From positions 40,796-104,795 of IMG/VR virus record IMGVR_UViG_3300021399_000116: 64,000 bases of DNA; one strand, given 5' to 3'. Position 1 is the first letter of the stretch. Each line of letters starts with the position of its first letter. This stretch comes from a virus (taxonomy: Duplodnaviria > Heunggongvirae > Uroviricota > Caudoviricetes). This document shows, piece by piece, positions 27,585 to 33,206 of the stretch. The translations under genes were made by a program, and so were the position numbers. The notes under the pieces are model-generated. The model ran no database searches. It had not been told where the DNA came from and saw only the letters and a program-made list of their open reading frames with translations.

Positions 27585-28088
27585 ATGATAGTTTGTTTAG
27601 AAGGACCAGATGGCTCAGGAAAAAGTACTTTAGTAAGATATCTTCAAGAAAAATATAATATGAAAATGAAACATTCAAGTTCTGAAACTAAAAATGATTT
27701 TCAATATCATTTAGATTTATTAGAAGAAGACAATGTAGTCTTAGATAGAGCTAATCTTGGAGAAATAGTATATCCAGAAGTATATGGTAGAAATCCTAAA
27801 ATGACTTGGGATAATCAAATAGATTTTATGAATGCTTGCATGGACAAAGGTGTAATTTATATAATCTTTTACGCATCAGACTTTAATACTTTAAAAGAAA
27901 GATTATTTAAAAGAGGAGATACTCAACAAGTGCTAGAAAATGCAGAGAAAATAAATTTAGTATTTAAAACTTTAGCACACATGTTTTCAGAACTTTATCC
28001 TAATGTGTATGCATTAGATATTTCTAAGGAGTCAGACCAGATTAAATTTTTCGAAGATATTTTAAAGGAGAAAACAGATGGAGAATGA
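27585..28088 (+). CDS. Deoxynucleoside monophosphate kinase (thymidylate kinase-like P-loop kinase)
   Basis: MIVCLEGPDGSGKST is the Tmk/dNMP-kinase P-loop. 167 aa, sitting in the nucleotide-metabolism cluster. Confidence 0.6.
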   Translation: MIVCLEGPDGSGKSTLVRYLQEKYNMKMKHSSSETKNDFQYHLDLLEEDNVVLDRANLGEIVYPEVYGRNPKMTWDNQIDFMNACMDKGVIYIIFYASDFNTLKERLFKRGDTQQVLENAEKINLVFKTLAHMFSELYPNVYALDISKESDQIKFFEDILKEKTDGE

Positions 28089-28317
28089 GTTTTATGAACA
28101 TTTAGTAATTTCTGGGAGAGATGAGAATTTTCAAAACGATTTAACTAAAGCTTCTATAGCAGGTTGGGAAACAGTTCATATAAATTCTTTTCCAGTAGAA
28201 AAGCCAGATATGCTAAAACATGGCTATACTATAGAATTAATCTATACAGCAGTTTTAAGAAGATTAAGAAGCAGAGAGGAGTTAAAAGATGATAACAGAA
28301 AACTTGAAACAACATAG
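28078..28317 (+). CDS. Hypothetical protein
   Basis: 79 aa overlapping both neighbours. Confidence 0.3.
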   Translation: MENEFYEHLVISGRDENFQNDLTKASIAGWETVHINSFPVEKPDMLKHGYTIELIYTAVLRRLRSREELKDDNRKLETT

Positions 28318-29302
28318 AGAAGAACAGTGGACAGAACAATATTATAAAGAATCAAAAGAAATAATACAAAATAAAGATATACTTCCGATTGTTGTTCCAT
28401 CGTATAGAAGAGGATATGCTGCTTCTACTTTACAGGCTTTGAAAGATTTTCCTGAGTTAAAAGTAGTAGTATTTATATATGAAGAAGAGTTTGATTTATA
28501 TAGACATTTATTTGAAACATATCCTCATATACAATATCAACTATGCTCAGGATTTAGAGGAATTGCTCCTAAAAGAAAGTATATTACTGAAAGAATGGTA
28601 CAATTAGGAATGCCAGAATTTTTTGAGATAGATGATGATGCAACAGCATTTTTCTATACAAAACATGGTAGTATGAAAAAAGACCCTACAAAGTACAAAG
28701 CAGAGAAGACCCAGATTGACATACAAGACTTTTTCAGAATGTTCCAATATATTATTAAATATAAAGCGCTAGAAAAAATAGACTTATGCGGAATAATTTT
28801 TGATAACGGAGCTTGGGCTCAAGATTTAAGAACTTTACCTGATATTATTTATATCGGCGGACAAGCTTTTTGCTTTTATTTAGATGCAAAGGCTTGCTTA
28901 GACAAAGGATTGAACTATTATGTAGAAGATAAAATTTGGGAAGATTTTGATTTTTCAATGCAAGTAATAAATGCAGGGTTAAACTCTTGTCAAATAAGAT
29001 ATTTAACTGCTTCTACACCTACTATGACTCCCGGAGATTCAGTCGCTACTGCAGCTGGTTCACCTTGGGCACAGAAATCAGTAAATCTATATAAAAGATG
29101 GGGAGACTTGATTAGGTTTAAACCTATGAAGGGTGAGTTGAATGCTAAAATAAAATGGACTACTATTAGAAATCAACTTAAGAAAGACGGTCATTTAACT
29201 ATCACTTATAATCCAGTTTATATGGAGTTTATAAATAGAAATGATTATGATGGATTAACACATTATATAGAACAAGAAAAGAATAAAAATGAGGAGGTAT
29301 AA
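28289..29302 (+). CDS. Putative GT-A fold glycosyltransferase
   Basis: LPIVVPSYRRGYAASTLQAL resembles the GT2 N-terminal motif (IIPxYN), and EIDDDA is a DxD-like motif. The gene is adjacent to the dCMP hydroxymethylase. Assignment is weak. Confidence 0.4.
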   Translation: MITENLKQHREEQWTEQYYKESKEIIQNKDILPIVVPSYRRGYAASTLQALKDFPELKVVVFIYEEEFDLYRHLFETYPHIQYQLCSGFRGIAPKRKYITERMVQLGMPEFFEIDDDATAFFYTKHGSMKKDPTKYKAEKTQIDIQDFFRMFQYIIKYKALEKIDLCGIIFDNGAWAQDLRTLPDIIYIGGQAFCFYLDAKACLDKGLNYYVEDKIWEDFDFSMQVINAGLNSCQIRYLTASTPTMTPGDSVATAAGSPWAQKSVNLYKRWGDLIRFKPMKGELNAKIKWTTIRNQLKKDGHLTITYNPVYMEFINRNDYDGLTHYIEQEKNKNEEV

Positions 29303-29304
29303 TT

Positions 29305-29649
29305 ATGGCTACTGAAGAACAAATAAGAAGTTTTCAGGCTACAGGTTTAACTAGAGAAGCATCTGAAAGATTAGCTAGTAAAGCTTATGATATGGATTTT
29401 GGAAAAGCTATTAGAGCATTAAAAGAAGGTAAACAAGTTGCTAGAAAAGGTTGGAATGGTAAAGAACAATATATAGAATTAGCAACAGATATAAGTTATA
29501 AAAATACAAAAGGAGAAATAATTAATGCAGAACATCAAGCTATTGGAAATCAAGCAATAGCATTTGTTGGTACTTCTGGAGTTCAGTTAGGTTGGTTAGC
29601 AAGTCAAGCAGATATATTAGCAACTGACTGGTACATAAAGGAGGACTAA
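29305..29649 (+). CDS. Small DUF2829-like protein (candidate signalling-nucleotide sponge, speculative)
   Basis: 114 aa with the VARKGWNGKEQYIEL motif that I associate with the DUF2829 family. Assignment is from recall only. Confidence 0.3.
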   Translation: MATEEQIRSFQATGLTREASERLASKAYDMDFGKAIRALKEGKQVARKGWNGKEQYIELATDISYKNTKGEIINAEHQAIGNQAIAFVGTSGVQLGWLASQADILATDWYIKED

Positions 29650-31258: not shown

Positions 31259-32752
31259 ATGTTAGTAACAGGAATTATTATTGGAGTCGCAGTTTTACTA
31301 TTAGTTTTATTTATTATGGCAAGTTATACTAAATGCCCACCAGATATGGTATATCTAGTATCTGGGTTGAGAAAAGAACCTAGAGTTATAATAGGAAAAG
31401 CTACATTTAAAATACCATTTTTTGAAAGAGTAGATAAATTAACTCTAGAACTAATTCAGATAGATGTAAGAACTTCTAGTGTACCTACAGCTGACTTCAT
31501 CAATGTAGATGTAGATGCTGTAGCAAATGTAAGAATACCTAAGGATAATGATTTAATACAAGTAGCTGCAAGACACTTTTTAAATCAAAGCTCTGATTAT
31601 ATAGCAAGAAATGTTCAACAAGTATTAGAAGGAAATATGAGAGAGATTATAGGTCAAATGCAATTAGTAGATTTAGTAAATAATAAACAAATCTTTTCTC
31701 AAAAAATCCAAGAGAATGCTAAAGATGACATTAAAGCTATAGGATTAGAAATAGTAAACTTAAATGTACAAAGTTGTACAGATGAGAATAATGCTATAAA
31801 TGATTTAGGAATTGACAATTTAGTCAAAATTCAAAAAACTGCGAAGATTGCAAAAGCTGAATCAGAAAAAGAAATTAAAATAGCTGAGTCTAAAGCTGAT
31901 GAAGAAGGAGCTAAAGCTAGAGCAGAAGCAGATGCAAAAATAGCAGAACAACAAAAAGATTTAGAAATTAAGAAAGCAGAGTTTAAAATAGAACAAGATA
32001 GAAAGAAAGCAGAAGCAGATGCAGCATATTCAATACAACAAGCACAACAACAGAAATCTATAAATGAAAGTACTGTAGCTGCAGAGGTAGCAAAAGCAGA
32101 GAAAGAAACAGAACTTAAAGAGAAAGAAGTAGCATTAAAAGAAAAAGAACTTGATGCTTTAGTAAGAAAACAAGCAGATGCTGAAAGATATGCTGCAGAA
32201 CAAAAAGCTGAAGCAGAGAAGAACGTAAGAATACAGGAAGCAGAAGCAGACTTAGCAGATGCGGAAAGAGGAGCTAAAGCTAGAGTAGCTCAAGCAAAAG
32301 CAGAAAAAGAAGCGAGTGAACTAGAAGCTCAAGGTATAAAAGCTAAATTAGTAGCAGAAGCTGAAGGAAAGAAAGCTATATTATTAGCAGAAGCAGAGGG
32401 TGTAAAAGCTAAAGGTTTAGCTGAAGCAGAAGCTATAGAGAAGAAAGCAGAAGCACAAGCAAAGATGAAAGAAGCTTCTATTGTAGAAATGATAATGACA
32501 GCTTTACCTCAAATAGCTAAAGAAGTATCTACACCTCTAAGCAATATAGACTCAATTACAATGTATGGAGACCAGTCAACTAAATTACTAGAAGAAAATA
32601 CTCAGAAAATAGATAAAGTATTAAAAGTGGCTCAAGATTCATTGGGATTAGATTTAAAAAGTTTAGTAGCTGGATTTGCTGGTTCAGAGGTATTAAACAA
32701 AGTAGTAGATTCAAAAACTAAAAAATCTAATAAAACTCAAACATCAGAATGA
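31259..32752 (+). CDS. floT: Flotillin-like SPFH protein (FloT/YuaG homologue)
   Basis: N-terminal TM helix, an SPFH domain, a long Glu/Ala-rich coiled coil (AEAEA repeats) and a C-terminal LPQIAKEVSTPLSNIDSITMYGDQS segment that is collinear with the Bacillus FloT C-terminus. Confidence 0.85.
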   Translation: MLVTGIIIGVAVLLLVLFIMASYTKCPPDMVYLVSGLRKEPRVIIGKATFKIPFFERVDKLTLELIQIDVRTSSVPTADFINVDVDAVANVRIPKDNDLIQVAARHFLNQSSDYIARNVQQVLEGNMREIIGQMQLVDLVNNKQIFSQKIQENAKDDIKAIGLEIVNLNVQSCTDENNAINDLGIDNLVKIQKTAKIAKAESEKEIKIAESKADEEGAKARAEADAKIAEQQKDLEIKKAEFKIEQDRKKAEADAAYSIQQAQQQKSINESTVAAEVAKAEKETELKEKEVALKEKELDALVRKQADAERYAAEQKAEAEKNVRIQEAEADLADAERGAKARVAQAKAEKEASELEAQGIKAKLVAEAEGKKAILLAEAEGVKAKGLAEAEAIEKKAEAQAKMKEASIVEMIMTALPQIAKEVSTPLSNIDSITMYGDQSTKLLEENTQKIDKVLKVAQDSLGLDLKSLVAGFAGSEVLNKVVDSKTKKSNKTQTSE

Positions 32753-32823
32753 CTTCAGTGACATTTTTATAAAGAGTTAATATAATTTTATATCTTAGCG
32801 CTACTAAAAATTTAAAATACCTA

Positions 32824-32852
32824 TTTACAAAATTAAAATAATATGTTATAAT
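32824..32852 (+). promoter_or_regulatory. Sigma-A-type promoter (TTTACA-N17-TGtTATAAT)
   Basis: -35 TTTACA at 32824-32829, a 17-nt spacer, then an extended -10 TGTTATAAT at 32844-32852. It lies upstream of the MazG-like gene and is nearly identical to the element at 41919-41947. Confidence 0.5.
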
Positions 32853-32900
32853 GCACATATAAAGTAATTTTTGAAGTAAGTTCATTGGAGGTAAGACAGT

Positions 32901-33206
32901 ATGAATGAATTAAAGCGGTTGCAGCAAGAAATCTTAGAAAATAAGAAGAGACACGGATTTAATACAACAAACATTGAACAGGAATTTTGTTACTTATATG
33001 GAGAAGTTTCAGAAGCATACGAAGCGTATTATAAACAGAAAGACTCTTTATCTGAAGAATTAGCAGATGTAGCTATTTTTCTTTTAGGACTCTCAGAGAT
33101 TTTAGGAATAGACCTTTATGAAGAGATAGAAAGAAAAGTTGTTATAAATTCTCAGAGAGTATACAGCTTCAATGATAACGGCAAACCGATAAGAACAGAA
33201 GGGTAA
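32901..33206 (+). CDS. MazG-like nucleotide pyrophosphohydrolase (all-alpha NTP-PPase)
   Basis: EFCYLYGEVSEAYEAY...EELADVAIFLLGLSEILGIDLYEEIERKV matches the MazG EExxE and EELxD helices. It contains an in-frame CGG (codon 6) that does not need a frame change. Confidence 0.65.
   Translation: MNELKRLQQEILENKKRHGFNTTNIEQEFCYLYGEVSEAYEAYYKQKDSLSEELADVAIFLLGLSEILGIDLYEEIERKVVINSQRVYSFNDNGKPIRTEG

Follow-up and report, generated by a model that had tools for sequence, protein, structure and literature searches.

Computational evidence for a probable T-even-like hydroxymethylcytosine and glycosylation module in an uncultured gut phage

The 64,000-nucleotide (64-kb) stretch of DNA considered here, hereafter the window, comes from a tailed-virus record of IMG/VR (Caudoviricetes; IMGVR_UViG_3300021399_000116, positions 40,796 to 104,795) and carries, between its positions 27,585 and 33,206, a compact run of genes with predicted roles in cytosine modification and nucleotide metabolism. 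A sequence-only reading of this region had proposed a cytosine hypermodification pathway built around a homologue of the phage T4 deoxycytidylate (dCMP) hydroxymethylase, gp42. Every open reading frame (ORF) that it named was recovered in our analysis where it had been placed, on the plus strand and with a match to the family proposed. The genes of the module are, in order:

27585..28088, plus strand: P-loop nucleotide kinase, YorR/thymidylate-kinase-like (Thymidylate_kin, phrog_761, YorR)
28078..28317, plus strand: small conserved ORF of 79 amino acids (aa), overlapping the 3' end of the kinase gene and the 5' end of the TAGT gene
28289..29302, plus strand: predicted DNA glycosyltransferase (GT) of GT-A fold, TAGT family, 337 aa (PF20691, phrog_842)
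29305..29649, plus strand: Tad2-like (DUF2829) protein (PF11195, 2.9e-21)
29650..30348, plus strand: predicted T4 gp42-type deoxycytidylate 5-hydroxymethyltransferase, or 5-hydroxymethyl-dCMP (5hm-dCMP) synthase (PDB 1b49, E 1.1e-54)
30397..30660, plus strand: SpoVG homologue (PF04026, 2.8e-36)
30757..31209, plus strand: trimeric dUTPase (PF00692, 9e-18; TIGR00576)
32901..33206, plus strand: MazG-like all-alpha nucleoside triphosphate (NTP) pyrophosphatase, 101 aa (PF12643, phrog_3301)

The central gene is ORF 29650, whose product belongs to the ThyA superfamily (Pfam Thymidylat_synt, PF00303, 1.3e-17). Its best match among solved structures is the T4 dCMP hydroxymethylase listed above, with the best thymidylate synthase at 7.5e-9 and MilA at 9e-4. 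The protein is 43% identical to T4 gp42 and 20% identical to RB69 gp48, a 5-hydroxycytosine (5hoC) synthase, and its motifs RELKWY, MHDFICT and NMRSNDCVFGYDNDWAF match T4 gp42 column for column. We aligned it with T4 gp42, RB69 gp48, Escherichia coli ThyA and the 120 closest database homologues, and examined the active-site residues at E. coli ThyA positions 58, 80, 94, 143, 146, 147, 165, 166, 167, 168, 169, 173, 177, 207 and 209, which in the window enzyme are E, W, Y, D, C, T, M, R, S, N, D, G, D, H and Y, respectively. All 15 are the same as in T4 gp42, whereas eight of the 15 differ from RB69 gp48, among them position 169 (Asp in the window enzyme, Asn in RB69). Depending on the position, this pattern is common to 113-120 of the 120 homologues. 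The catalytic Cys (E. coli C146, T4 C148) is kept in the window enzyme and in every homologue, and the catalytic Glu (E58, T4 E60) in the window enzyme and in 119 of the 120.

Two of these positions bear directly on substrate and product. The change N177D confers cytosine specificity, and an acidic residue at the L143 position gives a non-methyl product (Lee et al. 2026, PMC13326640); such a residue admits water, so that a hydroxymethyl rather than a methyl group results. At the position of N177 (D179 of T4) the window enzyme has Asp, with DNDWAF aligned to RNDYAW of T4, as do 118 of the 120 homologues, and at the position of L143 it has Asp, as do T4 gp42 and all 120 homologues. The alignment thus supports the earlier view that the Asp of an ND motif sets cytosine over uracil as the substrate. 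A member of the ThyA superfamily might otherwise act as an additional thymidylate synthase, or hydroxymethylate dUMP and so lead to 5-hydroxymethyluracil (5hmU) as in SPO1, and 5hmU phages are well known among Bacillus phages. Against that precedent and the shared superfamily stand Asp rather than Asn at N177 and Asp rather than Leu at L143, as well as NCBIfam thymidylate synthase models that score the protein at 20-46 bits relative to cut-offs of 108-427, Bacillus phage ThyA homologues that are ~25% identical to it, and a ThyX enzyme encoded elsewhere in the window that already provides deoxythymidylate (dTMP). We therefore rejected both of these activities for ORF 29650, of which the sequence-only reading had judged thymidylate synthase unlikely from the presence of ThyX, and regard a 5hmU or thymidylate product as scarcely credible. 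A dCMP methylase was rejected by sequence criteria as well.

A closer comparison is provided by RB69 gp48 and DLP3 gp80, which are gp42-like yet act as flavin-dependent 5-hydroxy-dCMP synthases, and for which D169N is diagnostic (PMC13326640). The window cluster combines a YorR-like kinase, a GT and a ThyA homologue, to which sister phages add a UDP-galactopyranose (UDP-Galp) mutase; in this it is similar to the RB69, DLP3 and RL38JI clusters, and it would fit a product in which the sugar is ether-linked to 5hoC. However, Asp169 is retained in the window enzyme (RSND, where RB69 gp48 has Asn in RSQN) and in 118 of the 120 homologues; W80, Y94 and G173, all lost from RB69 gp48, are kept; and overall identity is 43% to T4 gp42 versus 20% to the RB69 protein. 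Asp169 and the overall identity led us to reject a 5-hydroxy-dCMP synthase, which we consider very improbable. In cultured phages, the nearest homologues (44-47% identity) all belong to T4-like phages and carry the annotation dCMP hydroxymethylase; in a set of 50,697 phage records, every homologue with more than 40% identity is a hydroxymethylase from a T4-like phage with a Gram-negative host. Because it is identical to T4 gp42 at every active-site position compared, ORF 29650 is, by all sequence criteria available, a 5hm-dCMP synthase, and the identification as a gp42-like hydroxymethylase holds.

The GT gene lies upstream of the hydroxymethylase gene. Its product matches the TAGT family at 46.1 bits (PF20691, gathering cut-off 27.5, E 7e-12) and phrog_842 at 2e-19. 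A sequence search of the PDB gave no significant match for this protein, nor did a profile search for ORF 16723 (discussed below), and fold searches were therefore needed for both. The nearest viral structure models of the GT are TAGT-domain phage proteins, including a “beta-glucosyl-HMC-alpha-glucosyl-transferase” of a T4-like Klebsiella phage. The GT-A active-site motifs R, DDD and ED(F) are present, and R41, D115-117 and E218-D219 are invariant across homologues. At the level of sequence and structure prediction the protein is thus a GT-A glycosyltransferase of the TAGT family, in agreement with the GT-A-like enzyme first proposed here, and its predicted role is to place a sugar on the hydroxyl of 5-hydroxymethylcytosine (5hmC, or hmC) in DNA. 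The family takes in the T2/T6 enzyme that glucosylates glucosyl-hmC, and GT-A relatives linked to 5mYOX glycosylate 5hmC directly (bioRxiv 10.1101/2023.12.21.572611).

The 79-aa ORF between kinase and GT found no family match in profile scans. Orthologues of 79-91 aa occupy the same place in the relatives labelled L001 (4007-4249), L016 (5342-5617) and L018 (5276-5521). The ORF accompanies every cassette that starts with a TAGT gene, whereas L017, whose GT is of T4 beta-glucosyltransferase (beta-GT) type, lacks it; the encoded protein might be an accessory to TAGT.

The strongest contextual evidence for the module comes from comparative genomics. In relatives whose hydroxymethylases are 77-94% identical to the window enzyme, the order of genes is kept as clamp loader, sigma-like, unknown, kinase, small ORF, GT cassette, hydroxymethylase, SpoVG and dUTPase, in some cases followed by flotillin and MazG. 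The part from kinase to dUTPase is kept in L001, L016, L017 and L018 (in L017 without the small ORF). What changes is the cassette itself. The window has the 337-aa TAGT gene and the Tad2-like gene, and L001, the 94%-identical relative, has a 390-aa TAGT gene, a gene for UDP-Galp mutase (GLF, PF03275, 4.5e-70) and Tad2. In L016 and L018, TAGT and GLF precede the hydroxymethylase and a second TAGT follows it, so that GLF stands between TAGT and hydroxymethylase in all three of these relatives (L001 5386-6498, L016 6880-8001, L018 6877-7998). In L017 the cassette is a single protein with 38% identity to T4 beta-GT (E 7e-79), encoded immediately before the hydroxymethylase. The genes on either side of the cassette share 87-99% identity between the window and L001, the GTs only 37%. 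We infer that the GT slot is an exchangeable cassette and therefore that the sugar differs among near-identical phages: GLF in the sister phages suggests a galactofuranose-containing DNA modification, like that proposed for Rhizobium phage RL38JI, and the T4 beta-GT homologue of L017 suggests glucose. That the slot accepts a homologue of T4 beta-GT, which in T4 itself glucosylates the hmC of DNA, argues for a slot devoted to DNA glycosylation, next to a ThyA homologue that makes hmC.

The same comparison bears on whether the GT acts on DNA at all, given that it could modify a polymer of the host envelope such as wall teichoic acid, as prophage TarP does. This is an improbable role for an enzyme that scores above the cut-off of the TAGT hidden Markov model, has phage TAGT proteins as its nearest viral structures, is encoded in a nucleotide-metabolism operon between kinase and hydroxymethylase, and is replaced in L017 by a homologue of a DNA-specific enzyme. 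RL38JI likewise couples UDP-Galp mutase to DNA glycosylation.

The Tad2-like gene (Thoeris anti-defence 2) is inserted between GT and hydroxymethylase. L001 has it (6501-6845, 96% identity), but L016, L017 and L018 do not have it in this slot, so the slot looks like a small counter-defence islet; the gene probably serves counter-defence independently of the pathway rather than encoding one of its enzymes. The SpoVG gene lies directly downstream of the hydroxymethylase in the window and in L001, L016, L017 and L018, and is followed in the window by a terminator-like hairpin (30694-30717).

For the kinase (ORF 27585), the match to Pfam Thymidylate_kin (1.5e-8) is joined by phrog_761 (2.5e-17) and by SPbeta YorR as the best PDB match (2axp, 5e-7). 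The TIGR00041 dTMP kinase model scores it at 40 bits, with a cut-off of 83. It was first described as a P-loop kinase of deoxynucleoside monophosphates (dNMPs). The P-loop kinase assignment stands, but a place in the T4 gp1-type family does not, as the T4 gp1 structure 1dek was not recovered at E<=0.1 and the dNMP kinase family phrog_139 matched at only 2e-4, over the P-loop. The protein may function like gp1 while lying outside its family, and is a candidate 5hm-dCMP kinase. It is kept directly upstream of the GT and hydroxymethylase genes in L001, L010, L016, L017 and L018 and likewise in Enterococcus phage vipetofem, and its closest cultured homologues are from Enterococcus phages (33-41% identity). 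YorR/thymidylate-kinase-like kinases also adjoin the ThyA homologue in the DLP3, RB69 and RL38JI clusters, and with these and vipetofem as examples such a kinase is a recurrent part of modules of this kind.

Two pyrophosphatases accompany these genes. ORF 30757 scores 105.4 bits with TIGR00576 (cut-off 102.55), and the best 60 of its 66 PDB matches are all dUTPases. Its dUTPase motifs are AGID, KSG, VDSDYRG, KITQ and RGEGGFGSTG, with Arg changed to Lys in motifs 2 and 4. Its most likely role is that of a standard dUTPase, providing dUMP and keeping uracil out of DNA, possibly with some dCTPase side activity. More distant homologues in L010 (11838-12422), L016 (9986-10522) and L017 (9021-9620) carry 30-45 extra residues at the N-terminus and no longer have the Gln of motif 4 (DRPCS rather than RIAQ/KITQ), and their specificity may have diverged. 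The sequence-only reading was right to place ORF 30757 in the dUTPase family, but not in placing T4 dCTPase there: T4 gp56 matches PF08761 (dUTPase_2, all-alpha dimeric) and PRA-PH, both of the MazG-type superfamily, and not PF00692. This rules out ORF 30757 as the analogue of gp56.

The better dCTPase candidate is ORF 32901, the predicted MazG-like all-alpha pyrophosphatase, because gp56 belongs to that superfamily and not to the trimeric dUTPases. It matches phrog_3301 (1.4e-11) and PF12643 (28.2 bits, cut-off 27) and, in the PDB, 1vmg (4.6e-5), MazZ of a Z-genome phage (7ody, 2e-4) and DCTPP1 (0.058), which agrees with the family first proposed. Its E..E and EL(A/V)D metal-binding motifs (GEVSEAYEA, EELADV) align with those of T4 and RB69 gp56, and RB69 gp56 has DCTPP1-like structural matches (PMC13326640). 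The enzyme would deplete dCTP. Between the two pyrophosphatase genes lies a gene for a 497-aa SPFH/flotillin protein (31259-32752, plus strand).

Further genes that bear on nucleotide supply and cytosine methylation lie upstream of the module:

14293..14997, plus strand: ThyX, flavin-dependent thymidylate synthase, for dTMP (PF02511, 4e-41)
15404..16720, plus strand: serine hydroxymethyltransferase (SHMT), for 5,10-methylene-tetrahydrofolate (methylene-THF) (PF00464, 1.5e-143)
17390..17869, plus strand: dCMP deaminase (PF00383, 5.6e-16)
21401..22585, plus strand: C5-cytosine DNA methyltransferase (PF00145, 3.8e-27; PPCSG and ENA motifs intact)

ThyX, SHMT and dCMP deaminase, all three already recognised in the sequence-only reading, are encoded 12-15 kb upstream of the module; L017 carries FolD in addition. 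Between SHMT and dCMP deaminase, ORF 16723 encodes a nucleoside-deoxyribosyltransferase fold fused to a helical domain, a protein that could sanitise hm-dUMP or some related nucleotide in the manner of DNPH1/MilB.

The C5-methyltransferase calls for a different weighing, because fully hmC-substituted DNA offers it no substrate. It is apparently intact and lies 5 kb upstream of the hmC module, and its presence would be accommodated if hmC were made but replacement were partial, or glycosylation not as proposed, in DNA of mixed C and hmC that is formed without an efficient dCTPase and methylated at the remaining cytosines. The marginal match of the MazG-like protein, which carries no specificity signal, points the same way, as does the near absence of certain restriction sites, which shows that the phage also relies on site avoidance. 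On the other side, the methyltransferase is missing from the syntenic position in L017 and thus has the look of an accessory gene, the module contains all parts of the T-even scheme, and T4 and RB69 deplete GATC as well despite complete replacement. We regard partial replacement as unlikely, though not negligible. A 5mYOX/TET partner for the methyltransferase and TAGT was considered and dropped, as no Tet_JBP (5mYOX/TET) match was found among ~50 window ORFs scanned with Pfam; ORF 22983 (368 aa), which adjoins the methyltransferase gene, matched nothing in family scans.

The site counts themselves are as follows. GATC occurs once in the window (36815-36818) where 154 +/- 11 copies are expected, GAATTC and CATATG are absent (18.9 +/- 3.9 and 15.6 +/- 3.8 expected), and GATATC occurs eight times (21.5 expected). 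GATC is depleted across the clade (L001, L010-L012, L016-L018) and in the stretches of T4 and RB69 examined, and is not depleted in other carriers of gp42-like genes (L002-L007). Since T4 and RB69 avoid GATC despite complete replacement, site avoidance says nothing about modification and was set aside as indirect evidence for it.

The phage to which the module belongs has a genome of ~132 kb. The window is AT-rich (GC ~29%), with nearly all genes on the plus strand, and its proteins include a T4-like portal, a baseplate spike, SH3/glucosaminidase lysis-type proteins, SpoVG and an HU protein, from which we take the phage to be contractile-tailed, with a Gram-positive host. Megablast of the region against the 50,697 phage records gave no nucleotide-level match to a cultured phage. 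An identical hydroxymethylase protein is encoded on a 131,896-bp European Nucleotide Archive contig and on a 63.9-kb Logan contig. Hydroxymethylases of 73% identity occur on 132.5-kb contigs in metagenome-assembled genomes (MAGs) from goat duodenum that are labelled “Bacilli bacterium”; in a scan of GTDB genomes, the hydroxymethylase was found only in two 132.5-kb contigs of goat-duodenum MAGs. Further relatives are found in metagenomes of pig and other guts, on contigs as long as 223 kb. The MAG labels hint at a low-GC Gram-positive, Bacilli-like host in the gut.

Elsewhere in the window are plus-strand genes for a GroEL/Cpn60-like chaperonin (43216-44589, 1.7e-22), a DUF285 ‘Mycoplasma’ repeat protein (55343-56374, 1.9e-17) and a Kelch-repeat protein (59713-61101, 2.3e-22). 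Downstream of the module, an ORF-less stretch of 1.35 kb contains two plus-strand tRNA genes, a tRNA-Thr(UGU) found by both ARAGORN and Rfam (34077-34151) and a second tRNA found by Rfam only (34597-34660); in relatives this place is likewise free of genes, over 1.3-2.2 kb. A promoter scan gave no excess over chance.

Set beside the T-even hmC pathway, the window has an orthologous hydroxymethylase with the same active site, a GT gene that adjoins it as b-gt adjoins gene 42 in T4, a TAGT-family GT as in T2 and T6, a candidate all-alpha pyrophosphatase, a dCMP deaminase and a separate thymidylate synthase. It differs in its Gram-positive, low-GC host, in a kinase that is YorR/thymidylate-kinase-like rather than gp1-like, in a pyrophosphatase that is a 101-aa MazG-like protein rather than the 171-aa gp56, in the use of ThyX rather than ThyA/Td, and in carrying its own SHMT. 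Moreover, TAGT is the only GT seen in the window, and must serve there as the primary transferase.

A Gram-positive precedent is provided by the Enterococcus phages VPE25 and VFW, whose DNA resists bisulfite conversion and is cytosine-modified, with a T4-like beta-glucosyltransferase (Duerkop et al. 2016, PMC4999554); that study describes a route of methylation followed by hydroxylation, not a ThyA-type enzyme. In their relative vipetofem (Vipetofemvirus, NC_055834, 51922-54789) we found the order kinase, ThyA homologue with D143, D169 and D177, trimeric dUTPase and beta-GT; the record labels the first ‘hypothetical’ and the second ‘thymidylate synthase’. This group shares with the window phage a Gram-positive host, a homologous kinase (33% identity) directly upstream of a ThyA homologue with the same three Asp residues, and a trimeric dUTPase and DNA GT within one module. 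Unlike the window phage, its members are siphoviruses with genomes of 85 kb; their ThyA homologue shares only ~30% identity with the window enzyme, and their GT is a GT-B enzyme (beta-GT) rather than a GT-A TAGT.

The arabinosyl- and hexosyl-5-hydroxycytosine clusters of RB69, DLP3 and RL38JI (Lee et al. 2026, PMC13326640) likewise combine a YorR/thymidylate-kinase-like kinase, one or more GTs, a ThyA homologue and an all-alpha dCTPase, and the Rhizobium phage RL38JI has a UDP-Galp mutase, as do the sister phages L001, L016 and L018. Their ThyA homologues, in contrast, carry D169N and make 5-hydroxy-dCMP with flavin and O2, whereas the window enzyme keeps Asp169 and the whole gp42 pocket, and their GTs are of the GT-B type. 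Metagenomic GT-A enzymes (bioRxiv 10.1101/2023.12.21.572611; Burke et al. 2021, PMC8256090) share with the window GT its fold, the R...DDD...EDY/F motifs and structural kinship to JGT and TarP. From ~20,000 metagenomic GT-A contigs mined, neighbourhoods split about evenly between 5mYOX and thymidylate synthase (bioRxiv 10.1101/2023.12.21.572611). The characterised enzymes act after a C5-methyltransferase and TET at specific sequence contexts, whereas in the window phage, which has a nearby C5-methyltransferase and no 5mYOX detected in the window, the hydroxymethyl group would precede replication.

Taken together, the pathway would run as follows. SHMT would make methylene-THF, and the gp42 homologue would move its one-carbon unit to C5 of dCMP and hydrate it to give 5hm-dCMP. 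The YorR/thymidylate-kinase-like kinase would convert this to the diphosphate and a host NDP (nucleoside diphosphate) kinase to the triphosphate, which the phage polymerase would incorporate. The MazG-like pyrophosphatase, in the role of T4 gp56, would hydrolyse dCTP to dCMP, which would both starve the polymerase of dCTP and feed the hydroxymethylase, and dUTPase, dCMP deaminase and ThyX would deal with dUTP and dTMP. After replication, the TAGT enzyme would put a sugar from a host nucleotide-sugar on the 5hmC hydroxyl.

Several considerations weigh against this scheme. What the hydroxymethylase makes, how much of the cytosine is replaced and which donor and acceptor the GT uses are all predictions, and the window spans only about half of the genome. 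The characterised T2/T6 TAGT adds a second sugar to hmC that is already glucosylated, and no alpha- or beta-GT was found within the window, so direct action of TAGT on hmC is an assumption, made by analogy with the 5mYOX-linked GT-A enzymes. The candidate kinase is not of the gp1 type, the PF12643 match of the MazG-like protein is marginal, with no sign of dCTP specificity, and the C5-methyltransferase appears to be intact. These points notwithstanding, every computational test available supports DNA with hmC, probably glycosylated, made through hydroxymethylase, kinase, DNA GT and dNTP (deoxynucleoside triphosphate) pyrophosphatases. We put the probability that the module is the core of a T-even-style, pre-replicative replacement of cytosine with hmC and a sugar at roughly three in four.

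Beyond this core, a wider picture can be sketched only tentatively. TAGT may act as the primary transferase on pre-replicative 5hmC, in a slot that is swapped rapidly among TAGT alone, TAGT with GLF and a second TAGT, and T4 beta-GT, so that near-identical phages could bear chemically different hmC glycans, some of them undescribed, such as galactofuranosyl-hmC or di-hexosyl forms. The 79-aa ORF, SpoVG and ORF 16723 could be further parts of the module. We consider this extension possible but rather doubtful.

A pathway of this type is already known, from the T-even scheme, from the Gram-positive precedent (PMC4999554) and from metagenome-scale catalogues of GT-A and ThyA pairings, and the finding leaves the current picture of phage DNA hypermodification unchanged. 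It is of moderate interest for the setting, a clade of uncultured gut Bacilli myoviruses in which TAGT apparently acts alone and in which cassette exchange implies different sugars. If confirmed, it would mean that the T-even hmC scheme, with its active site intact, reaches uncultured large myoviruses of low-GC Gram-positive hosts, in a clade that inhabits the guts of ruminants, pigs and perhaps humans. Such genomes may behave abnormally in restriction-based, bisulfite, nanopore and possibly transposase-based metagenome analyses, and the hotspot of sugar-cassette swapping could be a source of new DNA glycosyltransferases, a class of enzyme used to map hmC and to label DNA.

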